A DNA stretch of 13,987 bases from an uncultured bacterium. Its GTDB lineage: Bacteria; Babelota; Babeliae; Babelales; RVW-14. Both the position numbers and the translations under genes were made by a program. Shown piece after piece: positions 1 to 13,987 of this stretch (the stretch's first letter is position 1; every line of letters starts with the position of its first letter). The notes beneath the pieces are model-generated. The model ran no database searches. It was given only the letters and a program-made list of their open reading frames with translations, and was not told the origin of the DNA. The DNA lies in contig CAVXAT010000019.1 of NCBI GenBank assembly GCA_963759805.1, positions 1-13,987 on the forward strand. Reading direction: 5' to 3'.

Positions 1-425
1 ATCACGATAATCAGGTATGCCCAGCAATCTTTTCTCCTAATGGCCAACCCATCTTAACTGCTTCAGATGACAACACTGCAAAACTTTGGAATTTGAACGG
101 GCAGCTTATTGCAACATTCACACGATATATATCAAGCAGTCTTTTCCCCGGATGGCCAATTCATCTTAACTGCTTCAAATGACTATACTGCAAAACTTTG
201 GGAAATCCATCCACTTTGGAATTCCACAAAATATCGAACTGGCCAACTTTCTTTGCAAGAGTTAGCAACGATTTTGCTTATCTTGAAACACAAAGATTTT
301 GTTAGGTCAAATTCGAAGATCCAGGCCATTATTCATGGCGTTCTTAATCAAATCGATGGACCTGTGGATGTGCCTAAGAGCAAAGACACATCAAAAACTT
401 TTTTGTATGGTTTTTGAATTCTTAA
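1..425 (+). pseudogene. 3' part of WD40-repeat paralog 1 (5' truncated by window; frameshifted)
   Basis: Two WD40 units (H..V..A.FSP.G..ILTAS.D.TAKLW) followed by the family C-terminal domain (WEIHPLWNSTKYRTGQLSLQELATILLILK). Frameshifts occur near 120 and near 370. The family ending HIKNFFVWFLNS* (TAA 423-425) lies in a different frame from ORF 109..417. Confidence 0.75.
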
Positions 426-766
426 ACGGAAAGACTAATGTGGAAAACCAACATGGCTTAATACCCAAAAAATGCAGCCCGGCGACCAGGTTCTGTTCTC
501 GCCCAGGTGGAACCAGGTGTTTCAAGATCTGGTGTTGAAGTTGGCTGCTTAAAACAACAAATAATTTAGCATTTAAGTTTCACATAGAAACGTACCCAAT
601 TCAAATATCACCCAATCTGTTTCAGCCTGAAATCTTAATCTATTTTTAATCTATTTTTTTGATTTTTTGAGGGAGCGGTTGCGCAACCTGTTTTTTATTG
701 TTAAAATTGAAAATAATAAGAATTAAATAAAGTTTTTTATTGCAAATGTGAGTACAGGTTATATTT

Positions 767-772
767 AGGAGG
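767..772 (+). promoter_or_regulatory. Shine-Dalgarno site for WD40 paralog 2
   Basis: AGGAGG 7 nt upstream of ATG at 780. Confidence 0.7.
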
Positions 773-779
773 TTATATC

Positions 780-2111
780 ATGAAAAAGAGTTTATTTTTA
801 ATACCTTTGGCGACGCTGTTTTTTCAGGTACCATCATATGTTTTTTGTGCAATGGCGCCGGAAGAAACAAGTCGTAATTGGTCCTAACCTTACATCAAAT
901 ATGTTTCAATAATGCCAGTAACCATATTCTACTATTACACCCCAGAACAACTCCTTGAATCACCAAAAAGGAAAAAGCCCTGCCGCAAGAAATTGCATAT
1001 GAAATTTCTAAAACTTTAATATCAATAAATTCTGCCTTTTTCTTTCCCAAAATCGATGGTTATCCAAAAAAATCATGACAGTTTGGGATTTCATCACATT
1101 ACAATATTCCACCATGATGATTTGTAAATTCAGCAGTCTTTTCCCCGGATGGCCAATTCATTTTAACTGCTTCAAAGATCATACTGCAAAACTTTGGAAT
1201 TTGAACGGAGAGCCGATTGCAACATTCCATCACTGATTTTAGGTAAACTCAGCAGTCTTTTCCCCCGATGGCCAATTCATCTTAACTGCTTCATGGACCA
1301 TACTGCAAAACTTTGGAATTTGAACGGAGGAGAGCCGATTGCAACATTCCAGCACGATTTTGGGGTAAACTCAGCAGTCTTTTCCCCCGATGGCCAATCC
1401 ATTTTAACTGCTTCATAGGACCACACTGCAAAACTTTGGAATTTGAACGGAGGAGAGCCGATTGCAACATTCCATCACGATTTTGGGGTAAAATCAGCAG
1501 TCTTTTCCCCCGATGGCCAGTTCATTTTAACTGCTTCACATGACAAAACTGCAAAACTTTGGAATTTGAACGGAGGAGAGCCGATTGCAACATTCCAGCA
1601 CGATTTTGGGGTAAACTCAGCAGTCTTTTCCCCCGATGGCCAGTCCATCTTAACAGCTTCAGTTGACATTGCAAAACTTTGTAATTTGAACGGAGAGCCA
1701 ATTACAATATTCCAGCACGATTTTTGGGTAACCTCAGCAGTCTTTTCCCATGATGGCCAATTCATTTTAACTGCTTTAGGTAACGGTACTGCAATACTTT
1801 GGGAAATTCATCCGCTTAGGAATTCTCCAAAATATCGCAATGGTCAACTTTCTTTGCAAGAGCTAACAACAATTTTGCTTATTTTGAAATACAAAGACTT
1901 TGTTAAGTCAAATCCGGAGGCCCAGGCCATTATTCATGAAGTTCTTGATCAAATAGATGGAAATGTACCTGACGAACAAAGATACATCAAAAACTTTTTT
2001 GAATGGTTTTTAATCGATGGGAATGTACCTGACGAACAAAGATACATCACGAACAAATGGAATGTACCTGGATACATCAAAAAATTTTTTGAATGGTTTT
2101 TAAATTATTAA
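780..2111 (+). pseudogene. WD40-repeat paralog 2, about 6 repeats, multiple frameshifts (pseudogene or sequencing indels)
   Basis: ATG at 780 begins a signal-like MKKSLFLIPLATLFFQVPSYVFCA. Out-of-frame pieces (ICFNNA, ALPQEIAYEISK, FFPKIDGYPK) match the N-terminus of 2127..3455. WD40 units start near 1112, 1230, 1353, 1477, 1600 and 1717. Only 1443..2111 is a long continuous frame. Confidence 0.8.
1952..2105 (+). repeat. Local tandem duplication/triplication of the C-terminal tail (about 60-bp unit)
   Basis: GATGGRAATGTACCTGACGAACAAAGATACATCA occurs twice 60 bp apart, plus a rearranged third piece. The peptide IDGNVPDEQRYI...FFEWFL is repeated. Confidence 0.85.
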
Positions 2112-2126
2112 AAATGAAAGACTAAC

Positions 2127-3455
2127 ATGAAAAAACATCTTATGCCCAAAAATTTATTTGTGATTGCCCTACTCCTAATCACATTTTTTAAAAACGTAAG
2201 TGGAGCCAAACCCTTGACTGAAATATGTTTAAAGAATGCCTATGAATATATTCTCGACTGTCCTCCGAAACAACTTATTGAATTAGCCAGAGGCGAAAAG
2301 GCCCTACCCCAAGAAATTGCATACGAAATTTCTAAAGCCTTAATAACAAAAAATTCTACTCTTTTCTTTCCTAAAGTTGATGGTTATCCAAAAATAAAAC
2401 AAATATCCCAACATAATAATGAAGTAAAATCAGCAGTCTTTTCCCCCGATGGCCAGTTCATCTTAACTGCTTCATATGACAACACTGCAAAACTTTGGAA
2501 TTTGAACGGAGGAGAGCCGATTACAATATTCCAGCACGGTCATTTGGTATTCTCAGCAGTCTTTTCCCCGGATGGCCAGTTCATCTTAACAGCTCCAGCT
2601 GACCATACTGCAAAACTTTGGAATTTGAACGGAGGAGAGCCGATTGCAACATTCCAGCACGGTGATTGGGTACTCTCAGCAGTCTTTTCCCCCGATGGCC
2701 AATCCATCTTAACAGCTTCAACTGACCGTACTGCAAAACTTTGGAATTTGAACGGAGGAGAGCCGATTACAACATTCCAGCACGATTTTGAGGTAAAATC
2801 AGCAGTCTTTTCCCCCGATGGCCAGTTCATCTTAACAGCTTCACTTGACCATACTGCAAAACTTTGGAATTTGAACGGAGGAGAGCCGATTGCAACATTC
2901 CAGCACGATTTTGGGGTAAAATCAGCAGTCTTTTCCCCCGATGGCCAATCCATTTTAACTGCTTCATATGACCACACTGCAAAACTTTGGAATTTGAACG
3001 GAGGAGAGCCGATTGCAACATTCCAGCACGATTTTGGGGTAAAATCAGCAGTCTTTTCCCCCGATGGCCAGTTCATCTTAACAGCTTCACTTGACCATAC
3101 TGCAAAACTTTGGAATTTGAACGGAGGAGAGCCGATTGCAACATTCCAGCACGATTTTGGGGTAAACTCAGCAGTCTTTTCCCCCGATGGCCAATCCATT
3201 TTAACTGCTTCATATGACTATAATGCAAAACTTTGGGAAATTCATCCGCTTTGGAATTCCACAAAATATCGCAATGGTCAACTTTCTTTGCAAGAGCTAA
3301 CAACAATTTTACTTATTTTGAAATACAAAGACTTCGTTAAGTCAAATCCGAAGGTTCAGGCCATTATTCATGGCGTTCTTAATCAAATCGATGGGCCTGT
3401 GCCTGCAAATCAAAGGCATATCAAAAACTTTTTTGAATGGTTTTTAAATTCTTAA
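2127..3455 (+). CDS. Secreted WD40-repeat protein (7 repeats), paralog 3
   Basis: 442 aa with an N-terminal signal-like segment. Seven 41-aa WD40 repeats have a 123-bp period (His codons at 2412, 2535, 2658, 2781, 2904, 3027, 3150), followed by the helical family C-terminus. Confidence 0.93.
   Translation: MKKHLMPKNLFVIALLLITFFKNVSGAKPLTEICLKNAYEYILDCPPKQLIELARGEKALPQEIAYEISKALITKNSTLFFPKVDGYPKIKQISQHNNEVKSAVFSPDGQFILTASYDNTAKLWNLNGGEPITIFQHGHLVFSAVFSPDGQFILTAPADHTAKLWNLNGGEPIATFQHGDWVLSAVFSPDGQSILTASTDRTAKLWNLNGGEPITTFQHDFEVKSAVFSPDGQFILTASLDHTAKLWNLNGGEPIATFQHDFGVKSAVFSPDGQSILTASYDHTAKLWNLNGGEPIATFQHDFGVKSAVFSPDGQFILTASLDHTAKLWNLNGGEPIATFQHDFGVNSAVFSPDGQSILTASYDYNAKLWEIHPLWNSTKYRNGQLSLQELTTILLILKYKDFVKSNPKVQAIIHGVLNQIDGPVPANQRHIKNFFEWFLNS
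2412..3240 (+). repeat. Seven near-identical 123-bp WD40 coding repeats
   Basis: TCAGCAGTCTTTTCCCCSGATGGCCA and GCAAAACTTTGG recur every 123 bp. Confidence 0.95.
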
Positions 3456-3470
3456 AAATGAAAGACTAAC

Positions 3471-4172
3471 ATGAAAAAACTTCTTATGCTCAAAAATTTA
3501 TTTGTGATTGCCCTACTCCTAATCACATTTTTCAAAAACGTAAGTGGAGCCAAACCCTTGACTGAAATATGTTTAAAGAATGCCTATGAATATATTCTCA
3601 ACTGTCCTCCGAAACAACTTATTGAATTAGCCAGAGGTGAAAAAGCCCTACCCCAAGAAATTGCATACGAAATTTCTAAAGCCTTAATAACAAAAAATTC
3701 TACTCTTTTCTTTCCTAAAGTTGATGGTTATCCAAAAATAAAACAAATATCCCAACATAATAATGAAGTAAAATCAGCAGTCTTTTCCCCCGATGGCCAG
3801 TTCATCTTAACTGCTTGCGATGACAATACTGCAAAGCTTTGGAATTTGAACAGAGGGCCGATTGCAACATTCCAGCACGGTAGTTGGGTAAACTCAGCAG
3901 TCTTTTCCCCCGATGGCCAGTTCATCTTAACTGCTTCAGATGACGGTACTGCAAAACTTTGGGAAATTCATCCGCTTTGGAATTCTCCAAAATATCGCAA
4001 TGGCCAACTTTCTTTGCAAGAGTTGGCAACAATTTTACTTATTTTGAAGCACAAAGATTTTGTTAAGTCAGATCCGGAGGCCCAGGCCACTATTTATGGC
4101 GTTCTTAATCAAATCGATGGGAATGTGCCTGCAAATCAAAGGCATATCAAAAACTTCTTTGCAAGTTTTTAA
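3471..4172 (+). CDS. Secreted WD40-repeat protein (2 repeats), paralog 4
   Basis: 233 aa. The first ~115 aa are almost identical to 2127..3455 and the upstream linker (TAAAAATGAAAGACTAAC) is identical. It has only two WD40 units and the same C-terminal domain. Confidence 0.9.
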   Translation: MKKLLMLKNLFVIALLLITFFKNVSGAKPLTEICLKNAYEYILNCPPKQLIELARGEKALPQEIAYEISKALITKNSTLFFPKVDGYPKIKQISQHNNEVKSAVFSPDGQFILTACDDNTAKLWNLNRGPIATFQHGSWVNSAVFSPDGQFILTASDDGTAKLWEIHPLWNSPKYRNGQLSLQELATILLILKHKDFVKSDPEAQATIYGVLNQIDGNVPANQRHIKNFFASF

Positions 4173-4188
4173 ATGCTTAAACCTGCAC

Positions 4189-5448
4189 TTATTTAGCCCC
4201 CAGCAACTTTTCTTCAATTTCCATCAATCGATTATATTTTGCAACACGTTCGCCACGACAAGGTGCTCCAGCTTTAAACTGCCTCGCTGCAGTTCCAAAA
4301 ACAAGATCTGATATGAATGTATCGCAAGTTTCGCCCGATCGGTGCGAGACGACCGTTTTGTAATTATTTAGTTTACAAAATTTGATGGCTTCAACAGTTT
4401 GCGTAACTGTCCCAATCTGGTTTGGCTTGATAAGCACGGCATTTGCAACTCCAAGCTTGACGCCCTTTGCAATCCTATCAATATTTGTAACAAACAGATC
4501 ATCCCCAACAATTTGAATTTTATTCCCAAGCTTTTTAGTCAGAATTTCCCAGCCGGCCCAATCATCTTCAGCCATTCCATCCTCAATCGAAACAATTGGG
4601 TAATTCTTTACCAAATCTTCATACAATTCAACAAACTGTGAACTTGTTAGCTCTTGATTATCGATTATATAAACATTTTTTACAGCATCATAAAACTCAG
4701 AGGCGGCAATATCTAAGCAAAAAGAGATTTCACTTGTACAGTATCCGGACTCTTCAACAGCTTTGTGCATATAATCAAGCATGATATTCTCTTTATTTTT
4801 CTTGGCTTTAATCATGGGCGCAAAACCACCCTCAAAACCAACTCCAACACCATATCCATCTTTTCTTAAAATATTTTTAAGCGCCTGATAAACTTCAACA
4901 GCCGTCTGAACCGTCTTTTGCATTGATCCCTGATTCTTGGGCAAAATCATAAATTCTTGAAACGCAACACCATTGTCCGCGTGTACCCCGCCGTTTAAAA
5001 TATTAAACATACACAAAGGAAAAGCCGTAGGACCAATTCGGAAAACTTGATTTAATAATTCGTAAAGTTCTATTCCTGAATCAACAGCCTGTGCGCGAGC
5101 CACTGCAATGCTTGCAGCCAACGTAGCATTTGCCCCAAGATTTGATTTATTGGGAGTACCGTCGAGATCAATAATTAATTTATCCATGTCGATTAATGCA
5201 GGCGTTTTGCCAATCAATGCAGGCGCAATTTTTTGCTCCAAATTTTCAATAGCTTTCAAAACACCTTTGCCTAAAAACCTGTTTTTGTCACCATCACGTA
5301 ACTCAATGGCTTCAAAAATTCCGGTTGACGCTCCGGATGGCACTGCGGATGTTACCACACTGCCATTATCAAGTTTCAAAACACACATAACTGTTGGAAT
5401 ACCGTTAGAATCAAGCACTTCTCTGCCAAAAATCTTTGATATTTTCAT
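4189..5448 (-). CDS. eno: Enolase (phosphopyruvate hydratase)
   Basis: 419 aa with motifs VPSGASTG, EAIELRDGD, NGGVHA, FQEFMI, EGGFAP, SIEDG, VGDDLFVTN, LIKPNQIGT, VSHRSGET, ERVAKYN. Confidence 0.98.
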   Translation of the reverse strand: MKISKIFGREVLDSNGIPTVMCVLKLDNGSVVTSAVPSGASTGIFEAIELRDGDKNRFLGKGVLKAIENLEQKIAPALIGKTPALIDMDKLIIDLDGTPNKSNLGANATLAASIAVARAQAVDSGIELYELLNQVFRIGPTAFPLCMFNILNGGVHADNGVAFQEFMILPKNQGSMQKTVQTAVEVYQALKNILRKDGYGVGVGFEGGFAPMIKAKKNKENIMLDYMHKAVEESGYCTSEISFCLDIAASEFYDAVKNVYIIDNQELTSSQFVELYEDLVKNYPIVSIEDGMAEDDWAGWEILTKKLGNKIQIVGDDLFVTNIDRIAKGVKLGVANAVLIKPNQIGTVTQTVEAIKFCKLNNYKTVVSHRSGETCDTFISDLVFGTAARQFKAGAPCRGERVAKYNRLMEIEEKLLGAK

Positions 5449-5488
5449 GTTAATTTTACCCTTCTGAAAAATTTGCTAGTCTATGGAA

Positions 5489-5595
5489 CTTATTAATCCA
5501 TGGATTCCAGCCGTCCTTCGACAAGCTCAGGATGAGCGCTCATGGTGAGCCTGTCGAACCATGGCGGACAGGCCTGAAACCAATTTAGGATTACA
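5489..5595. repeat. Composite nested palindromic (REP/RPE-like) element, eno-yajC intergenic
   Basis: Backbone TGGAT|CCTGAAACCAATTTAGGATTACA is interrupted by TCCAGCCGT...ATGGCGGACAGG (5506-5572). The loop of that insert contains the hairpin TTCGACAAGCTCA...TGAGCCTGTCGAA. Homologous to 10689-10800. Confidence 0.85.
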
Positions 5596-5637
5596 CGCTG
5601 GTTTACACAGTATTTGTACAATATTGAGTTTTACATA

Positions 5638-5967
5638 ATGCTAAGCAACTTATACTCAAATATTAATACCCAAGTGACTGAATTAACAAAAAGTCAGTCG
5701 CCTTTAACCATAATTTTAATTCTGGCTTTAATTTTAACGCTAGTATTTCTTGCTTGCTACAATTTAATTATTATCCCTCAAAAATTGGCGCGGGCACACC
5801 TAGATTTCATATGCAACAAACTCAAACCGGGGGACAAGGTAAGCATCCAAAATGGGAACGTGGGCATAGTTTTATACATTTTTAAGAGTACGGTAATCAT
5901 AGAGCTTGAAAACGGATGCAAAACTGAAATTCTAAAACAGTCTATCAAAAGCATACATAAGTTTTAG
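5638..5967 (+). CDS. yajC: Preprotein translocase subunit YajC
   Basis: One TM helix followed by IIPQK...LKPGDKV...G.VG.V...V.IEL..G....I.K.SI, the YajC pattern. ATG 5638 is preferred over TTG 5614. Confidence 0.85.
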   Translation: MLSNLYSNINTQVTELTKSQSPLTIILILALILTLVFLACYNLIIIPQKLARAHLDFICNKLKPGDKVSIQNGNVGIVLYIFKSTVIIELENGCKTEILKQSIKSIHKF

Positions 5968-5973
5968 GGTTTT

Positions 5974-7380
5974 ATGGGACAAACAAACAAAAACTTCTCT
6001 CCATTTATACCAGCTTCCATCGCATTTATATTTGGAATTTACGCACAATCGTATGAACTTTTTAACCCGACAATTTTATTAATAATTCTTGGGGTTTTTA
6101 CCCCAATTGTGTTTGTCAGCGCAATGAAGCGCACAACGGCTTTTAAGCCGTTGTATTGCGCGAAATCCCGCCATAGCCGCATTCATCCCCAGCTTGATAA
6201 ACATGGGGTTTTCTGGCGACGGCGGATCAAAAATTTTTACTCGAATTTTACTCAGGCTTTTACTTGTATCATTTTTTTTACACTTGGTAGTTTTGCACTA
6301 ACATGGCAGAAAAATCAGTATTCAACTATGATACAAGAATTTGATGGCAAAAAACTTGATCTGATCGCCAAAGTTACAAATAAAATACTATTACCAGCAG
6401 ATAAGAGCGGCGACCGGCATGGTTGCTGGAAAGAGATTCTTGAAATAACAGTATGGCAAGCGAAAGATGTGACACCATTCTGCGAAATTAAAAAACCAAA
6501 CTTGCCCGCTCGTGGTGAGTGTTTTTTGCAGGCCGCACCCTTCGATACGCCTCACAACGCTCGGCACTCAGGGCGAGCGGCCAAAAAAAATGTATCGAAC
6601 CATGCGGGCATAAAATTTGCTTCGAATTGTATAGCCCCCTGCTATAAAAAAACAAACTTCAATCTGCAATGCTACTCCACTTCAAACAGTTGCGTGCAAG
6701 TTGACAATATAATTGAAATACAAGACGTCAAAATTAAAGTTCCACAGGATCAATCACTTTCTCAAAACAGTTCATATAAAAATTATCTGATTAAAGAGAA
6801 TTTGTTGGCTTCCGTATTTTTTTACAAAAACAAAAACATAAAAATTTTACGCACCCCAAAATTCAGCTTCAAAAGATTGATCTGGAATATACAAGTAAAC
6901 ACATATCAAAGGCTTCAACAAAAAATGCACCCTACCGTTTTTACTTACTTTTCACTAATGTTTTTAGGCAACACACATCACAAAAACATTGATTCGATGC
7001 GTAACACATTCAATTACTGGGGGCTATCACATTATCTGGCCCGCTCAGGATTACACATTGTTCTGTTTATTCTTATCTGGACGATATTTTTACAACTTAT
7101 TCCCATCTCAATCAGATTTAAACGCAGCTTACTAATTATTATTTGCATAACATATAAATTATTTTCTTGGACAAGCCTTCCATTCACCAGAGCCTTTTAT
7201 GCATTTATTCTGACTGAAATCGGAAAGATTTTTAATCTTCAAACGAACTTTTTGCACCTGCTCTGCATAGTATGCATGACCATTCTTTTATTTAATCCAA
7301 TGCAATTATTTTTTCTTGATTTCCAACTAACATTTGCACTGACGTTTGCGCTTGCATTCGTTTCAAAATATATGCACTAG
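5974..7380 (+). CDS. comEC: ComEC/Rec2-family competence channel protein (no C-terminal metallo-beta-lactamase domain visible)
   Basis: N-terminal TMs (FIFGI), a soluble region, then F..WGLSHYLARSGLHI, RA, NPMQLFFLDFQLTF competence-domain motifs. Contains two in-frame palindromic insertions. Confidence 0.88.
   Translation: MGQTNKNFSPFIPASIAFIFGIYAQSYELFNPTILLIILGVFTPIVFVSAMKRTTAFKPLYCAKSRHSRIHPQLDKHGVFWRRRIKNFYSNFTQAFTCIIFFTLGSFALTWQKNQYSTMIQEFDGKKLDLIAKVTNKILLPADKSGDRHGCWKEILEITVWQAKDVTPFCEIKKPNLPARGECFLQAAPFDTPHNARHSGRAAKKNVSNHAGIKFASNCIAPCYKKTNFNLQCYSTSNSCVQVDNIIEIQDVKIKVPQDQSLSQNSSYKNYLIKENLLASVFFYKNKNIKILRTPKFSFKRLIWNIQVNTYQRLQQKMHPTVFTYFSLMFLGNTHHKNIDSMRNTFNYWGLSHYLARSGLHIVLFILIWTIFLQLIPISIRFKRSLLIIICITYKLFSWTSLPFTRAFYAFILTEIGKIFNLQTNFLHLLCIVCMTILLFNPMQLFFLDFQLTFALTFALAFVSKYMH
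6133..6225. repeat. In-frame palindromic insertions in comEC (site 1)
   Basis: Perfect hairpin ACAACGGCTT-TT-AAGCCGTTGT (6133-6154), and CCGCCATAGCC...GGCGACGGCGG (6168-6225) with inner CCCCA...TGGGG hairpin. Confidence 0.8.
6503..6610. repeat. In-frame nested palindromic insertion in comEC (site 2)
   Basis: Outer TGCCCGC-TCGTGGTGAGTG...TGTATCGAACCAT-GCGGGCA. Inner oppositely oriented GGCCGC-ACCCTTCGATAC...CACTCAGGGCGA-GCGGCC (6531-6582). Confidence 0.85.
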
Positions 7381-7469
7381 CCAATTGGCAGTAGAAAAAC
7401 CAAATAGTCCGGATATACTTAAAACTACCGGGTTTGGATCTATCTGTTTTTAGTGCTTGAGGAATAATC

Positions 7470-8384
7470 GTGAACAATAAAAATAATGATAAAAATTTAG
7501 ACACCCAAGTAAAAAATTACATAAATTTTTTAAAAAAACAGCCCAAGGGCTTTGTGTACAAAGATAATAGACCGCTTCTGGAACCCGGCGCGCCCGTCTA
7601 CGCCAAGGCTACGACGGATGGTTCGACAAGCTCACCACGAGCGCGCCTACTTACTCCCGCTCATCCTGAGTGTTTTGCGAAGCTTGCTGAGCAAAATGTA
7701 TCGAAGGATCGTCCTGCCGTGCCGGCCATAGCTCCCCAAGAGCGACGGCTGGAGCCTGTCGAAGGATGCGAGTGCCAGACGAGATCTAATACAGAATCCG
7801 GATCAAAATCACGCCAAGATATGCTTGACGAAATAAAGTGCAAATTCAAAAACTGTACCCAATGCCCACTTGCCCAACAAGGCCGATCGCAGGTTGTTTT
7901 TGGTGTGGGAAATCCGTTTACAAAAATTATGTTTGTTGGCGAGGGACCGGGCAGAGACGAGGATGCCCAAGGAAAGCCGTTTGTCGGTCGAGCCGGCCAA
8001 TTGCTCACAAAAATAATTGAGGCTATGAAACTCAAGCGTGATGAAGTTTACATCAGTAACGTTGTAAAATGCCGCCCGCCAAACAACAGAACTCCACTGC
8101 CAAACGAGAGCGATATCTGCAAAAAATTAATTCTTTTTAAAGAAATCGAAATCATCAAGCCACAAATCATTTGTGCACTCGGAGCAACTGCCACACAGGG
8201 TCTGCTTGGATATGACATAAGCATTTCAAAATCGCGTGGAATTTTCTTTAAATTTAATGATACTTTGGTTCTGCCAACTTACCACCCAGCCTATCTTCTG
8301 CGCAATCCGGATGCAAAAAAGATTGTATGGGAGGACATGAAAAAGATTATTGGGAAATTAAACGAAATTAACACTACAATTTAA
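7470..8384 (+). CDS. udg: Uracil-DNA glycosylase, family 4 (4Fe-4S)
   Basis: CTQCPL, VGEGPG..ED..GKPFVGRAG, NVVKCRPPNNRTP..ESDIC, TYHPAYLLRNP motifs. GTG start. The N-terminal linker carries about 60 aa derived from palindromic elements. Confidence 0.95.
   Translation: MNNKNNDKNLDTQVKNYINFLKKQPKGFVYKDNRPLLEPGAPVYAKATTDGSTSSPRARLLTPAHPECFAKLAEQNVSKDRPAVPAIAPQERRLEPVEGCECQTRSNTESGSKSRQDMLDEIKCKFKNCTQCPLAQQGRSQVVFGVGNPFTKIMFVGEGPGRDEDAQGKPFVGRAGQLLTKIIEAMKLKRDEVYISNVVKCRPPNNRTPLPNESDICKKLILFKEIEIIKPQIICALGATATQGLLGYDISISKSRGIFFKFNDTLVLPTYHPAYLLRNPDAKKIVWEDMKKIIGKLNEINTTI
7588..7773. repeat. Cluster of in-frame palindromic elements in udg
   Basis: Contains CCGTCTACGCCAAGGCTACGACGG (7594-7617), TGGTTCGACAAGCTCACCACGAGCG, CGCTCATCCTGAGTG...TGTATCGAAGGA, CCTGCCGTGCCGGCCATAGC...GCGACGGCTGGA (7713-7753) and AGCCTGTCGAAGGA. 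All match the intergenic elements. Confidence 0.85.
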
Positions 8385-8395
8385 ACACATGGGGC

Positions 8396-8424
8396 TTTAA
8401 ACACGCGTATTTTTCTGTTAAGAT
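8396..8424 (+). promoter_or_regulatory. Putative sigma70 promoter upstream of the tRNA-fragment array
   Basis: TTTAAA (8396-8401), 17 bp spacer, TAAGAT (8419-8424), with a TGn extended -10. The first tRNA 5' end is 24 nt downstream. Confidence 0.45.
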
Positions 8425-8447
8425 CAAATATATCTTGAAAATTACTT

Positions 8448-9134
8448 GGAGACGTAGCTTCCAGCCTTCGCCCTTCCCACTCCGCTCAGGTAGCTCCGAG
8501 GGACAGGTCGTGGCTACGGCGGACAGGCAGTTGGTTATTGAAAACTTTTGGAGACGTAGCTTCCAGCCTTCGCCCTTCCCACTCCGCTCAGGTAGCTCCG
8601 AGGGACAGGTCGTGGCTACGGCGGACAGGCAGTTGGTTATTGAAAACTTTTGGAGACGTAGCTTCCAGCCTTCGCCCTACGTGGCTACGGCGGACAGGCA
8701 GTTGGTTATTGAAAACTTTTGGAGACGTAGCTTCCAGCCTTCGCCCTACGTGGCTACGGCGGACAGGCAGTTGGTTATTGAAAACTTTTGGAGACGTAGC
8801 TTCCAGCCTTCGCCCTACGTGGCTACGGCGGACAGGCAGTTGGTTATTGAAAACTTTTGGAGACGTAGCTTCCAGCCTTCGCCCTACGTGGCTACGGCGG
8901 ACAGGCAGTTGGTTATTGAAAACTTTTGGAGACGTAGCTTCCAGCCTTCGCCCTACGTGGCTACGGCGGACAGGCAGTTGGTTATTGAAAACTTTTGGAG
9001 ACGTAGCTTCCAGCCTTCGCCCTACGTGGCTACGGCGGACAGGCAGTTGGTTATTGAAAACTTTTGGAGACGTAGCTTCCAGCCTTCGCCCTACGTGGCT
9101 ACGGCGGACAGGCAGTTGGTTATTGAAAACTTTT
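8448..9134 (+). repeat. Tandem array of 9 interrupted tRNA-Val 5' fragments (2 x 102 bp + 7 x 69 bp)
   Basis: Unit = GGAGACGTAGCT [TCCAGCCTTCGCCCTACGTGGCTACGGCGGACAGG] CAGTTGGTTA TTGAAAACTTTT. Units start at 8448, 8550, 8652, 8721, 8790, 8859, 8928, 8997 and 9066. The first two have an extra 33-bp nested insert. Confidence 0.97.
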
Positions 9135-9208
9135 GGAGACGTAGCTCAGTTGGTTAGAGCACCCGCTTCACATGCGGGGGGTCGGAGGTTCGAGTCCTCT
9201 CGTCTCTA
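9135..9208 (+). tRNA. tRNA-Val(CAC), CCA not encoded
   Basis: Acceptor GGAGACG/CGTCTCT + A. D-arm GCTC-AGTTGGTTA-GAGC. Anticodon arm CCCGC-TT CAC AT-GCGGG (CAC 9169-9171). T-arm GGAGG-TTCGAGT-CCTCT. Confidence 0.96.
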
Positions 9209-9237
9209 TTGATTAAAATGCTAAATCAAACACATTA

Positions 9238-9310
9238 GTCGGAGGCCTGTGCTCCATAGCCACAAGCAACGCGAGGGCGACGGAGCATTCGAGTCCTCTC
9301 GTCTCTACCA
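9238..9310 (+). pseudogene. Duplicated tRNA-Val 3' fragment with CCA, interrupted in the T-arm by a 42-bp palindromic element
   Basis: GTCGGAGG (9238-9245) + CCTGTGCTCCATAGCCAC...GGGCGACGGAGCA (9246-9287) + TTCGAGTCCTCTCGTCTCTACCA (9288-9310). Confidence 0.92.
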
Positions 9311-9333
9311 GTTTGCGTTTATTTGAAATAATT

Positions 9334-9819
9334 TTAATCCATAGAATTCATAAGCTCCAGAACCTCTAACATTTTGAGCTTGTCTTCAATATCAGATTTT
9401 GAATTTATTATTTTTTTATCAATAACCTTTAATAATACGTAGCTGATAATAAATGTCAGTAGCCCGATATCAAATCCAAATGCGTTACACCCCCAGTGTG
9501 TCTTATAATCCCAATCCCACACGTGAACGGCACATGTATAAGCGTAGCTCCCCATACATGTGCCTAAAATCAATACACCTGCTACTAATTTTATTTCGTT
9601 CAATATTGCTTTTTTTGTTGATGGCGACAGTCTGTCTAATGCATCTTTTAAAGCAGCGTCAAACTCTACCCTCAAGTGTTCTTTTACCTCTTCTCTTGTG
9701 ACATTCTCGAAACTATCTAATTTTGCCGCACGAAGTCCACTTGTTAAAAAAACGCTATTTATAAATAAAATGTCGCTAATTTTAAAAACATATATCAATA
9801 CGTTTTTAAAAAATTTCAT
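9334..9819 (-). CDS. Hypothetical membrane protein
   Basis: 161-aa ORF immediately downstream of rsmA on the same strand, with a hydrophobic N-terminus and two probable TM segments. No family recognised. Confidence 0.7.
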   Translation of the reverse strand: MKFFKNVLIYVFKISDILFINSVFLTSGLRAAKLDSFENVTREEVKEHLRVEFDAALKDALDRLSPSTKKAILNEIKLVAGVLILGTCMGSYAYTCAVHVWDWDYKTHWGCNAFGFDIGLLTFIISYVLLKVIDKKIINSKSDIEDKLKMLEVLELMNSMD

Positions 9820-9835
9820 AATTTTATATCACATA

Positions 9836-10663
9836 TTACTCTGAAACAATCTCTTTCCATAAATTTATAAAATTATCAAACGACAACTGCTGAGCTCGCA
9901 ATGCGAGCAATTCCGGGGAAAGTTTTTGATTTGTAAAATATTTTGTTGTTTTCAAATTATTTTTAAGAGTCTGTCGTGGAGACCTGTAACATAATTTTAA
10001 AAAAGACCAAAACTCCGTTTCTTGCGGAATATCTTGTAAATCAAATTTTGGTTTAAAATAAATTGTACGCGAAAAGACTTTTGGAGCCGGAATAAATGAA
10101 CCGGGCGCAACCTTATCAAGCAATTTCCATTCGAAATGACGCTGTAGAAACATAGTAGCCGGAGAGAATTTTTTACCTCTAGTTGCAACAATTTTTTGTG
10201 CAACTTCTTCTTGCAGCATAACAACACCCTCTTGAAATAGATCTTTGCATTTTTGAATTTTGAATAAAATTGGAAATGTAATCTGATATGGCAAATTTGC
10301 AAGCAGAACAAGCGGCTTGTGTTTTTCAAGATCTTTAGTCAGATCAACAGTCAAAATATCTTGATTGTTAATTTTTAATCTGGGATCTTTGATCTTCTTA
10401 TTAACATAATCAATCCATTCAGAATCAATTTCGTACACAAATAGATTTTTGCACTTTGTTTGAAGCAAAATTGCAGAGGTCAAAAACCCATCGCCGCAAC
10501 CAATTTCAACAACAGAAGTCTCGTGCGATACGCTAACAGTATGAATCATTCGATCAACAACGGCTTGGTTGCGTAAAAAATGCTGCCCGTAGGCTTTCTT
10601 CTTGATCGGCAACTTTTCTAACTCTTCGGCTTCCAAGCGAAGCCGTTTACTTTTATATTCCAT
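9836..10663 (-). CDS. rsmA: 16S rRNA (adenine1518/1519-N6)-dimethyltransferase
   Basis: KKAYGQHFL, VEIGCGDGFLT, EID, ANLPYQIT, MLQEEVA, F.PAPKV.S, R..LKNNL, RAQQLS motifs of KsgA/RsmA. Confidence 0.96.
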   Translation of the reverse strand: MEYKSKRLRLEAEELEKLPIKKKAYGQHFLRNQAVVDRMIHTVSVSHETSVVEIGCGDGFLTSAILLQTKCKNLFVYEIDSEWIDYVNKKIKDPRLKINNQDILTVDLTKDLEKHKPLVLLANLPYQITFPILFKIQKCKDLFQEGVVMLQEEVAQKIVATRGKKFSPATMFLQRHFEWKLLDKVAPGSFIPAPKVFSRTIYFKPKFDLQDIPQETEFWSFLKLCYRSPRQTLKNNLKTTKYFTNQKLSPELLALRAQQLSFDNFINLWKEIVSE

Positions 10664-10688
10664 AGAGTCACTTATCTTAAAAGGAATG

Positions 10689-10800
10689 CTTATTAATTTA
10701 TGGATCCCGGCCGTCGCACTTGAAGTGCTATGGCGGACAGGCCTGAAACCCTCCTACGCCCTGCCGTGGCTTCGGCGAGGCAGGCAAGTTCAGGATGACA
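10689..10800. repeat. Composite nested palindromic element, rsmA upstream region
   Basis: Backbone TGGAT|CCTGAAA|CAAGTTCAGGATGACA (hairpin ATCCTGAA/TTCAGGAT) is split by two 36-bp inserts, 10706-10741 and 10749-10784, both ending in CAGG. Confidence 0.88.
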
Positions 10801-10993
10801 ACAGGAACATCATAGCAAAACCTCGCAGCTTTATACAGTTTTTGCCATTTTCCATACACTTGGCTAAAGCCGGATAAAAAAATATTATTTAAATACTTGT
10901 TTTCACTATATTAAATTTACTATTATTAATTTAGTATAGGAGTTTTAAAAAGTAGGTCGTAAAGTATTGGTGAGAAAAGGAGAAAGGGGAGAC

Positions 10994-12526
10994 GTGAATA
11001 GACAAGCAAGAGGCATACTCATTGTGTCGATCTGCACAGTGTTAGTTGCAAGCTCAAGTCTTTTCGGAGATAAACTCGAAGACTTTAAGTTGATTGAGGG
11101 AAAAGATCAAAATGCTAAAAAATTAGTACGCGGTGGCGGCGGTGGTCATGGCGGTGGGGGTGGCCATGGCGGCGGCGGTCACAGTTTTAGTGGTGGTCAT
11201 GGTGGGGGCAGAAGCTTTTCAGGTGGCCATGGAACAAGGTCTATGAAGTCTGGTAGCCGATCCTCAAAATCATCTGTACGATCTGGCGGTAAATCGTCAA
11301 CCAGATCAGTGAAATCAAGATCAAAAACCTCAAAATCATCTGTAAAAAGCCACGGAGCAAAGGGCAAAGGTACAAGGGGCGTATCAAAGGGTAAAGGCGG
11401 AAAAGGCGGTAAGGGTGGCAAGGGAATTGGTAAAGGCAAAGGCGGTAAGGGTGGCAAGGGAATTGGTAAAGGCAAAGGCGGTAAGGGTGGCAAGGGAATT
11501 GGTAAAGGCAAAGGCGGTAAAGGCGGCGGAAAAGGCGGCAACCGCGCAAATAAAATTGCACATCACCACGGGCACGGAGGCCACGGCGGAGGGCACCATG
11601 GACATCATGGGTATCACCATGGACACCATTGTCATGGTGGGTACTGGGGCGGCGGTTGGGGTTGCGCAGGCTGGTGGGGCGGTGCATATTTTGGATTTGG
11701 TGCATTGTATCCCTTCTGGTATCCAATGGATCCATTCTTCTGGGGGCCTTACTGGGTAACTCCTTGGCCATGGACTGCAGGCCTAGGTCTTCAATATTAC
11801 CCTGGTCCAGCATGGTGGTACATGAATGCATACAACTGTTGGGTATATCCATTTGCCGGACTTGGTTATGGTTTGATGTTTGCAAACCTCGGTTATTACT
11901 GGTATCCAAGAGCTGGCGTAAGCATTTATCTTGAAGTTCCAGAAGAAGAAGATGCGCCTAGCACGTATGTATACGTTGAAAACGAAAAGGATGAAGACCT
12001 GTACTATGCTTTATACCGCAAGGTCGATCGTAGCATTGACGATACAGAAGCCTCATACCTTATCAAGGTAAGTGCACCACACGTAATATCTACAAGAAAA
12101 GTAGTTAAGGTCTATCTCCCTGAAGATGTTTCAAAAGACAAAGAGTATGTGGTTGTTGCTCGTCGAAATGAATCTGAGTTAAGGAACAGCATGGATGAAG
12201 AGGGTAATAACATTAATCCAGATATCATTCAACAAATAAAGGAAGAAGATAAAGATCTTGCAAAAAGACATACTATGGAAATTGACGAACCATCTGAAAA
12301 AGAAGTTCAAGAGCTTAATAAAACTAAAGAGTCTGCTCGAGCAGATGAAGAAAAACTTGCAACTGCAGTTGAGAACATTGACAAGCAAGACAAGTCTGAA
12401 ATTCCAACAGTAGAACAACTTGAAAAGGAAACAGAACAGGCAAGAGAAGAAGGGACTGTTCATAAGAAACACAAAACAACACATGAAAGACCTGTAAAAA
12501 TGATTGAAGAAGTCGAAGTAGAATAA
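10994..12526 (+). CDS. Secreted low-complexity Gly/His/Ser/Lys-rich protein with aromatic-rich and acidic domains
   Basis: Long ORF (track start 10967). In-frame GTG at 10994 follows AAGGGGAG and precedes a signal-like hydrophobic stretch. No family recognised. Confidence 0.85.
   Translation: MNRQARGILIVSICTVLVASSSLFGDKLEDFKLIEGKDQNAKKLVRGGGGGHGGGGGHGGGGHSFSGGHGGGRSFSGGHGTRSMKSGSRSSKSSVRSGGKSSTRSVKSRSKTSKSSVKSHGAKGKGTRGVSKGKGGKGGKGGKGIGKGKGGKGGKGIGKGKGGKGGKGIGKGKGGKGGGKGGNRANKIAHHHGHGGHGGGHHGHHGYHHGHHCHGGYWGGGWGCAGWWGGAYFGFGALYPFWYPMDPFFWGPYWVTPWPWTAGLGLQYYPGPAWWYMNAYNCWVYPFAGLGYGLMFANLGYYWYPRAGVSIYLEVPEEEDAPSTYVYVENEKDEDLYYALYRKVDRSIDDTEASYLIKVSAPHVISTRKVVKVYLPEDVSKDKEYVVVARRNESELRNSMDEEGNNINPDIIQQIKEEDKDLAKRHTMEIDEPSEKEVQELNKTKESARADEEKLATAVENIDKQDKSEIPTVEQLEKETEQAREEGTVHKKHKTTHERPVKMIEEVEVE
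11405..11512 (+). repeat. 3 x 36-bp perfect tandem coding repeat (GGKGGKGIGKGK)
   Basis: GGCGGTAAGGGTGGCAAGGGAATTGGTAAAGGCAAA at 11405, 11441 and 11477. Confidence 0.95.
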
Positions 12527-12566
12527 AAAGAGGACACAAATCAGTAGGACAGAATAGATCAGTTTG

Positions 12567-12602
12567 AGTGGCATGCTTGAAAGAGCGTGCCACTTTCTTT
12601 TT
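12567..12602 (+). terminator. Rho-independent terminator
   Basis: AGTGGCATGCT-TGAAAG-AGCGTGCCACT stem followed by TTCTTTTT, about 40 nt after the stop at 12526. Confidence 0.85.
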
Positions 12603-12712
12603 CCCACCACTATATTTTAGGCTATAATAAAAATTGATTGAAATTAAGTTTCCGAAATGATATTTATTAAATAATTGATGATCATTGAGAGAATAAAAAA
12701 GGAATGGGGAAA

Positions 12713-13987
12713 ATGCAAAAATTTATGAAATCCATTTTCAAGCCTTTGCTTATCGGTTTGATTTTTGTTAGTGTGAGCTTATTTTTTACACCAAACTCAG
12801 AAACCGTATCTGCCGCTTCAACAACAGCATCCGCTCCGCTGGCAGGACTAGGAGCAACAACACTACCTCAACCGGCCGGTGTAGATCCGGATCTTGCCGT
12901 TTATAATGCATTAGTAACACTTGGAAACTCTGCATCAACAAATCCAACAGTATTTTCAGAACTAATGAGCTCAGTCTATAGTTTTTTGACAACCCCGGCA
13001 AAAGTATCCTCAACAGTCCCTGCGAAAAACATTGCATATCTAGCAAGTCCCTCCGGGGCGTGGTACATTGCCACTGCACCAAGTAACCAAGCTGCAACCA
13101 CAACCGCAAAGACCCAAGCGGACTTTGTCTCAGATTTAGCTGCAACTGCAAATCCACCATCAAACACCACAACTCCAGGGGCCCTAAATACTTTGATTAA
13201 TACTGCTGCTTACCAAAGCGGTTTCATTGACTACCCAAGCACAACCAATTCTGTTTACACTGCAATATTAAACTTCTTTAACATTACCACCAATAACGTA
13301 CCAAGCGGCCCAATTGTAACCGGTCAAGCATTAACCGACTTACAAACATTATTAACCAACCCAAAATTAAACAACTTTCTCAACTCAACCACCGGTGGTC
13401 TTAATGATCAATCAGGACAAACAACCTCAGAACAAGCAACCATTGCAGCCTTACTGCCTCAAGTTAATACTGCTGTAAGTTTTTCTAAGGCCTTGGCTAA
13501 TTTACCAAGCCCTATAACTCCGAGTGCCTTAAATAAAATTGTTAACTACACCAGCACCGATCCCAAAATTCAAACTTATAACACCGTGACTTATTTGGTT
13601 GATTTCCCGGCCGCAAATAGTACTGCAAATAATACTATTACTCTTTACACTATCATAGAAAGCTTCTTTACCAATTACATTCCAAATGTAACAGGCATAA
13701 CCAATGCACAAAATACTAGCGGCAGAACAGATTTAACAGATTTACAAACTTTGTTAAGTAATCCAAATTTGAATAATTTACTAAGCTCATCAGAACAAAT
13801 TTCGGTTGGGAGTTTACTTCTTCAAGTTACTATTGCAATACAGAGCACACAGGAACAGATACAGCAACAGACAAATGCTTTTGCTGCCTCTTTGGCAGCA
13901 GCCCTAACCCCACAGGCAGGAGTCGCAATCCCCGGCGCGTTAAATACCTTAGTTTCCAGCACCACCGGTGCACCTTATTTGTTTGAT
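12713..13987 (+). CDS. Large secreted Thr/Ser/Asn/Ala-rich repetitive (surface-like) protein, 3' truncated by window
   Basis: Manual translation is open for 425 codons to the window end: MQKFMKSIFKPLLIGLIFVSVSLFFTPNSETVSAAST... It has a signal peptide and internal repeats (PGALNTL/PSALNKI/PGALNTL; LTDLQTLL.NP.LNN.L twice). Absent from the ORF track because no stop falls in the window. Alternative in-frame ATGs at 12704 and 12725. Confidence 0.88.
   Translation, partial: MQKFMKSIFKPLLIGLIFVSVSLFFTPNSETVSAASTTASAPLAGLGATTLPQPAGVDPDLAVYNALVTLGNSASTNPTVFSELMSSVYSFLTTPAKVSSTVPAKNIAYLASPSGAWYIATAPSNQAATTTAKTQADFVSDLAATANPPSNTTTPGALNTLINTAAYQSGFIDYPSTTNSVYTAILNFFNITTNNVPSGPIVTGQALTDLQTLLTNPKLNNFLNSTTGGLNDQSGQTTSEQATIAALLPQVNTAVSFSKALANLPSPITPSALNKIVNYTSTDPKIQTYNTVTYLVDFPAANSTANNTITLYTIIESFFTNYIPNVTGITNAQNTSGRTDLTDLQTLLSNPNLNNLLSSSEQISVGSLLLQVTIAIQSTQEQIQQQTNAFAASLAAALTPQAGVAIPGALNTLVSSTTGAPYLFD

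Follow-up and report, generated by a model that had tools for sequence, protein, structure and literature searches.

The window analysed here is a stretch of 13,987 nucleotides from an uncultured bacterium of the Babelota (GCA_963759805.1, contig CAVXAT010000019.1, positions 1 to 13,987 of the forward strand), which forms contig C19 of a 1.5 Mb genome in 21 contigs, termed here G000 or the source genome. Its genes include eno, yajC, comEC, a uracil-DNA glycosylase gene, tRNA-Val(CAC) and rsmA, and in and between them lie members of a family of short hairpin elements, one of which is repeated in a tandem array in front of the tRNA gene. A sequence-only reading of the window had described these hairpins as a minimal non-autonomous element of 33-42 bp with a fixed CAGG end, inserted without target duplication into other hairpins beside a C, and mobilised in trans by an HUH transposase. 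The family proves to be real and widespread, and on balance its hairpin is probably the recognition site of a small GIY-YIG nuclease.

Anatomy, ends and targets of the hairpin family

The family descriptor asked for a 6-bp outer stem in which a single mismatch or bulge was tolerated, a K-W-Y / T-W-Y internal loop, a GC/GC clamp and a free inner loop, and did not include the CA tail. It matched the source genome 132 times, against 6 matches in the reversed genome and 1-6 in each of five shuffles, and CA followed directly after 112 of the 132 matches. The hairpin family described by the sequence-only reading is real and far above chance, and it is a widespread micro-element. From the outside inwards, a copy has an outer stem of 6 bp that covaries and in some cases bulges a single A, then a 3x3 internal loop, the GC/GC clamp and a variable inner stem-loop, and it finishes in a 3' CA(Y)RG-like tail; the sequence of the outer stem varies freely yet its pairing is kept. 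Excision from the innermost copies outwards yielded 111 events, which occupy 93 distinct sites; by design this set excludes 20 tail-less (non-CA) matches, other tails and long nests. Tails at the 93 sites were CAGG (44), CAAG (26) and the five-base CAY(A/C/G)G (23), so that the supposedly fixed CAGG end is found at fewer than half of them, and un-nested copies of about 30-47 nt extend beyond the length range first given.

The ends are precise. When the element is cut out at the predicted ends, the rebuilt 7+7 junction is found again elsewhere in the genome at 33 of the 93 sites, compared with 24 at +1/+1, 6 at +2/+2 (two shifts that shared bases allow) and 0-4 at other shifts. No target duplication was found at the 93 sites beyond nine 3-nt cases, all of them tRNA CCA|CCA. 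In metagenomes, 127 rows from 125 loci provided 92 usable copies; 84 of these have a first base that pairs with the end of the stem. Four apparent 7-nt duplications among the metagenome copies lie, as judged by eye, in short tandem repeats; these are the heptamer repeats at loci L269, L288, L316 and L353. The genome-wide motif search that the sequence-only reading had proposed supports a minimal non-coding element with precise, not ragged, ends and no target duplication. The strict pattern is present in 158 of 261 genomes of the phylum, relatives titled Babeliales/Dependentiae, with one control match overall, and one subtype occurs in an estimated 4700 metagenome stretches. Mismatches on the strand that carries the tail last are biased (8 A.C versus 1 G.T) and folding energies favour the opposite strand in 56 of 74 cases; because of both, recognition more likely involves the strand on which the tag lies 5' of the stem.

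Targets share a sequence preference. The base before the element is A or T at 87 of 93 sites here and 77 of 92 in metagenomes, and the base after it is C at 71 of 93 and 41 of 92, respectively; insertion therefore falls between W and mostly C/T, and the target C noticed in the window is a genuine preference that is not obligatory. The profile of 95 metagenome sites, 20 of which resemble the element's own 3' loop strand, scored a median of 1.96 on the source-genome junctions, versus -2.77 when shifted and -3.27 on the other strand. A strand-specific target motif is thus common to the source genome and the metagenome copies. Context counts as well: with the motif held fixed, 5751 of 55579 non-coding positions (10%) fall in tRNA or repeat masks, against 33 of the 51 sites located in non-coding DNA (30 more lie in open reading frames, or ORFs, and 12 are nested and unlocatable). 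Since this enrichment persists with the motif fixed, the data support a preference for certain contexts, namely the 3' ends of tRNA genes, other hairpin repeats and copies of the element, and the proposed bias towards structured targets holds beyond the non-coding background while being partly a preference for sequence.

Folding energy was rejected as proof of hairpin targets. Rebuilt sites reached -5 kcal/mol in 42 of 93 cases versus 11.5% of non-coding windows, yet GC-matched windows did so in 33.6% (P 0.09). Only 10 of 93 sites had a folding z below -2 at +-22 nt; at +-40 nt the figures were 29 of 93 sites and 9 of 93 random windows, and against mismatched-flank controls they were 20 versus 15 of 93 here and 18 versus 12 of 92 in metagenomes. 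The statement that all sites are hairpins accordingly stands as a category for the window sites, while the genome-wide enrichment in folding is weak after these controls. Near-identical copies occupy different target positions. Copies in ORFs take either orientation, those in T-loops can be antisense, and copy length is a multiple of three in 23 of 26 copies within long ORFs versus 23 of 58 outside (P 3e-5).

Members in the window and at tRNA genes

Coordinates of the family members and associated features are collected in the table below.

Table. Hairpin-family members and associated features in the window
Feature	Position	Strand	Basis or setting
Family element, outer arms and CAGG end, core swapped	5506..5572	+	sequence comparison
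In-frame 102-bp insertion in comEC, shrunken IS200/IS605-like unit	6125..6226	-	not a regular member
Family hairpin, no CA tail	7593..7618	+	edge of composite repeat, in frame in uracil-DNA glycosylase gene
36-nt member, CACGG end	7717..7752	-	inserted in second repeat family
Tandem array, nine units (2 x 102, 7 x 69 bp)	8448..9134	+	assembly sequence
33-nt variant member nested in loop of first array element	8475..8507	+	likewise at 8577-8609
Intact tRNA-Val(CAC)	9135..9208	+	tRNA search
Duplicate tRNA 3' arm, split at T-loop by 42-nt member 9246-9287 (-)	9238..9310	+	sequence
36-nt member, CAGG end	10706..10741	+	stem of CGTC/TGTC-type repeat (about 10692-10800)
36-nt member, CAGG end	10749..10784	+	loop of CGTC/TGTC-type repeat (about 10692-10800)

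CAGG-ended members lie where the sequence-only reading had placed them at 9246-9287, at 10706-10741 and 10749-10784, in the nine array copies and in the nested 8475-8507; three others on its list have no CAGG end of their own. The hairpin listed at 7713-7753 is in fact the CACGG-ended element at 7717-7752, and the CAGG at 7713-7716 belongs to the host repeat that was its target. The core listed at 7594-7617 is indeed a family hairpin, albeit a tail-less one. The member listed at 6168-6225 is a hairpin at 6166-6226 without a CA tail and part of the IS200-derived insertion, whose left- and right-end hairpins resemble the ends of the genome's IS200, the left one being wrapped by family-like arms. 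This tail-less hairpin recurs, with an IS-type right-end hairpin behind it, on C1 near 92006 (-) and on C11 near 40228 (+).

At 5506-5572 the arms and the CAGG end were correctly recognised, with 45 nt of a second hairpin repeat (5516-5560) standing in place of the core, so that here a host repeat has conversely inserted into a family copy. This element sits within the remnant of a third, CGTC/TGTC-type repeat, and the whole composite is missing at the orthologous eno-yajC spacer of two congeners. Similarly, the composite that holds the last two members is absent upstream of rsmA in two congeners; near-identical copies of 10749-10784 are found on C5 and C2 at an equal host position. Composite GC-rich repeats also lie in frame at 6483-6614 in comEC (132 bp) and at 7555-7790 in the uracil-DNA glycosylase gene (174 bp), and both are absent from two congeners.

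Each unit of the array opens with tRNA-Val bases 1-12, continues with a family element, which is 35 nt long in the 69-bp units, and closes with tRNA bases 13-22 and a 12-nt spacer. The number of such 5' units is none in G151, one in each of G149 and G150 and nine in the source genome; because congeners have one or none, the array is a tandem amplification of a single unit, unless it is an assembly artefact. The nine units are read from the assembly; the sequencing reads of one run contain only scattered look-alike pieces. The duplicate tRNA arm with its insertion (9238-9310) is absent in three congeners. At tRNA-internal sites the element is embedded in a second, duplicate piece of the tRNA that comes with a foreign spacer; the insertion may have made this duplicate or may have hit a spare copy. 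Two further loci of the source genome show related arrangements: the 3' arm of tRNA-Arg (C14:13080-13650) is repeated in tandem as three 149-bp units, each of which contains two family copies, and tRNA-Met (C11:19600-19790) has a D-arm 5' duplication like that at tRNA-Val.

An element was scored at the 3' end of 16 of 43 tRNA and tmRNA genes, 15 exactly after the discriminator base and one a weak match; three more tRNA 3' ends carry nested copies seen by inspection. Several tRNA genes of the source genome without an encoded CCA continue with CTCT, the start of the element subtype behind three Leu tRNAs, and these may possibly be scars of lost copies.

A candidate enzyme and the rival explanations

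Among six GIY-YIG matches in the source genome five are small, and these fall into three groups, each beside a different repeat. One group, termed clade A, is a single-domain PF01541 nuclease of 80 amino acids (longer or fused forms lay outside the search), and both clade-A genes of the source genome lie behind a tRNA and a family hairpin. The other two groups are bracketed by their own inverted hairpin repeats (C1:266306, C9:54564 and C1:132943), which are also the main hosts of the family. Flanks were scored with a relaxed pattern for a hairpin within 250 nt upstream of the gene, and these counts, like those for Y1 transposases (49 loci), concern the best-scoring loci of each search and not all matches. 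A hairpin lies upstream of 89 of 104 clade-A genes (25/30 in the phylum set, 10/13 and 54/61 in a GTDB scan whose titles include Verrucomicrobia, Alphaproteobacteria, Bacteroidota and Saccharibacteria), compared with 1 of 30 in an Ssn-like group, 3 of 24 in the third group and 4 of 1040 in the shuffle control. A stricter pattern found it at only 10/26 and 20/62 loci.

The two also co-occur among the 261 phylum genomes, where clade A was called at a cut-off of 1e-22. At least three copies and a clade-A match went together in 94 of 106 genomes (odds ratio 12, P 1e-16); the odds ratios at 1, 3 and 10 copies were 11, 12 and 4.3, and jointly fitted ratios were 12.0 for clade A, 1.07 for Y1 and 2.2 for the Ssn-like group. 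In a quick tree built from 105 of the 155 rows, a branch with support 100 sets clade A apart, and the clade conserves Y5, Y17, G19, R27 and H31. At least 7468 relatives were found at E 1e-15 among 8000 scored, a number that may include neighbouring clades. NCBIfam held no name for any of the small nucleases, comparison with the PDB gave only distant UPF0213 and SLX1 chains, and viral contigs had 29 weak relatives (best E 3e-14).

The coding module runs from a tRNA or tmRNA end through the hairpin, a spacer and an inverted second hairpin to the gene. Its hairpin begins exactly after the discriminator base, usually supplying CCA, and a sense tRNA or tmRNA was called within 450 nt at 61 of 104 clade-A loci. 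Further downstream, the left arm of the first hairpin is mirrored perfectly over 9-13 nt at 51 of 99 nuclease loci versus 1 of 84 solitary copies, and the start of this mirror forms the CA tail of the second hairpin.

Taken together, the family hairpin, which stands before the clade-A gene in many phyla, is probably the site at which the clade-A nuclease recognises single-stranded DNA (ssDNA), and cutting by this nuclease together with host ligation or repair likely dispersed the solitary copies. The nuclease would cut both feet of a folded copy on transiently single-stranded DNA, as well as look-alike sites with a consensus near GCT|HNGG, a sequence that also fits the 3' loop strand of the element, the D-arm of the tRNA and a repeat bearing CTCAGG. 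Host enzymes may then seal the freed oligomer into the cut, and survival would filter the copies, in frame inside genes and with the tRNA kept intact. GIY-YIG nucleases hydrolyse DNA and are not known to rejoin it, and insertion would for this reason need putative host enzymes; the sealing step is accordingly the more weakly inferred. Recognition and cutting are proposed by analogy with SsnA, which cuts ssDNA a few bases upstream of its own hairpin, strand-specifically and requiring a C after the stem (PMC11893778; Chenal et al., 2025). More tentative, and in our judgement doubtful, is a joint claim in which the 80-amino-acid hydrolytic nuclease would serve as the transposase of a 30-46-nt single-stranded hairpin, host ligation replacing the covalent tyrosine intermediate, and in which the three nuclease-hairpin pairs of one genome would parasitise each other's hairpins, the clade-A pair docking at tRNA discriminator bases and supplying a new CCA.

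Besides the lack of a known joining step, several points weigh against the nuclease as the partner. One clade-A gene of the source genome is frameshifted and the other is cut by a contig end. A hairpin lies downstream of the gene at only 10 of 104 loci, a one-sided arrangement unlike transposon ends. Clade A is missing at 1e-22 from 7 of the 43 genomes with at least ten copies, and G151 has a clade-A gene yet no strict family match. Related genomes are not independent in the association, and repeat-rich genomes may collect both parts. Moreover, composites of host and element may have multiplied as units, in which case the 93 sites are not 93 events, and the call of the recognised strand draws on the mismatch counts and folding energies given above.

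The enzyme that the sequence-only reading had proposed, an HUH Y1 transposase (IS200/IS605 TnpA or RAYT) acting in trans by single-strand cutting and rejoining, would account for the precise ends, the strand specificity and the lack of duplication, and HUH enzymes can rejoin DNA (PMC8266576). The source genome has five Y1 matches, the comEC insertion is IS200-derived with family-like arms, and upstream of tnpA in two identical IS200 copies lies a degenerate family-like hairpin that has no tail. However, none of the five passes the RAYT cut-off, and the Y1 genes carry hairpin ends of their own. A family hairpin lies upstream of 0 of 29 IS200-type and 3 of 20 weaker Y1 genes, and at the two Y1 loci with full copies the hairpin has inserted into the terminal repeats of the transposon itself and is missing from its sister elements. 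The Y1 odds ratios of 1.4, 1.2 and 1.9 at 1, 3 and 10 copies are not significant (P 0.5 at 3), and 22 of the 43 genomes with at least ten copies have no Y1 match, including the single-contig G005, G184 and G253. We thus find this route quite improbable; the sequence-only reading was mostly right about the anatomy, and its HUH proposal most likely names the wrong enzyme. Y1 transposases with long terminal inverted repeats do occur in the phylum (L228-L247, e.g., L230 and L232); in L230 one and the same family copy stands at an equivalent position in each arm, which suggests conversion between the arms.

That locus also speaks for another rival, in which the nuclease binds the hairpin and does not mobilise it, and the copies spread through recombination by the host, through gene conversion among similar repeats or tRNA ends, through template switching and as passengers of larger composites. 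This fits the outer-arm subtypes, which follow target class (arms of the CCAT type go with tRNA 3' ends, those of the GCCG type with one host position), congeners that lack a whole composite and not just the element, and direct repeats across the nuclease gene at 14 of 99 loci, several of them tRNA fragments. Homology alone, however, gives no base-precise ends in unrelated targets, explains neither the strand-specific motif shared with metagenomes nor near-identical copies at different target positions, and we rate spread by such routes as unlikely. The least likely reading, in our view a remote one, is an RNA switch that is located in the trailer of the tRNA and governs how the nuclease gene is expressed, the dispersed copies being by-products. 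The module does read on from the tRNA or tmRNA gene, and the mirror, so rare at solitary copies, would allow two folds; against this, the wobble bias and folding energies favour the strand opposite to the tRNA transcript, copies are antisense in T-loops and lie in either orientation in ORFs, an Rfam search gave nothing above threshold except tRNA and tmRNA, and dispersal is left unexplained.

CGTC repeats are described as lacking a dedicated transposase (PMC3733652), and mobility of the Ssn repeats has been raised only as a hypothesis (PMC11893778). How REP-like repeats spread without a RAYT is therefore an open question, for which the present family offers a candidate enzyme, base-precise ends, a strand-specific target motif and pairs of filled and empty sites. 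Should the predicted cutting hold, the nuclease would add a large clade of site-specific ssDNA nucleases tolerant of stem sequence. If it also drives insertion, this would be a new transposition chemistry, and if it acts as a transposase, the hairpin would be the smallest kind of mobile element.

Elsewhere in the window, positions 1-4172 hold four tandem paralogues with 41-amino-acid (123-bp) repeats, presumably WD40-like, the first two broken by stops or frameshifts, and positions 10967-12526 hold an ORF of 519 amino acids whose product has Gly/Lys repeats, one stretch rich in His, one segment rich in Trp/Tyr/Gly and a tail that is acidic.

Comparison with known systems

The closest parallel is the Ssn/NTS system, in which a stand-alone small GIY-YIG gene likewise lies beside a short oriented hairpin that is also dispersed genome-wide, a C directly follows the stem, a short ...RG tail ends the repeat (CYRG in NTS), catalytic Tyr, Tyr and Glu stand at matching positions and mobility is suspected, a hypothesis in both cases (PMC11893778). 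The degenerate SRM motif given there matched 0 of 93 family copies and 0 of 104 clade-A flanks, and it matched 10 of 30 flanks of the Ssn-like group, from which clade A is separate in a tree that holds no named SsnA. Clade A has 80 amino acids versus 94 for Ssn, and its hairpins are mostly upstream only, whereas 42% of Ssn genes are described as two-sided (PMC11893778). Furthermore, the family has a conserved 3x3 internal loop with a freely covarying stem, unlike Ssn repeats, and is tied to tRNA and tmRNA 3' ends, while the word tRNA has no occurrence in the main text of PMC11893778.

REP/BIME repeats, as described in PMC8266576 and PMC3733652, share with the family an imperfect palindrome of 20-50 nt with a tag at one foot and a conserved stem irregularity, as well as inverted doublets beside the enzyme gene, tandem arrays and in-gene copies. 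The tails of the family, CAGG, CAAG and CAY(A/C/G)G, differ from GTAG or CGTC, and the source genome has no RAYT partner above the cut-off; neither CAGG nor GIY occurs in PMC3733652. Rickettsia palindromic elements, as summarised in PMC3733652, resemble the family in their in-frame survival within protein genes. Unlike them, the family has a candidate enzyme and targets tRNA ends, a contrast drawn by description and not by sequence. Non-autonomous derivatives of IS200/IS605 have hairpin ends and make no target duplication. The family shares these properties, yet it is a single hairpin with no link to TnpA genes in the upstream counts, and ends shared with an autonomous TnpA element are seen only in the separate insertion in comEC. 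A literature search, which left most subscription journals outside its reach, found no description of the family motif or of tRNA-end GIY-YIG hairpin modules. To summarize, the family resembles Ssn/NTS or REP/RAYT in its working, yet with no match to the SRM motif, no GTAG or CGTC tag and no RAYT it falls outside both.

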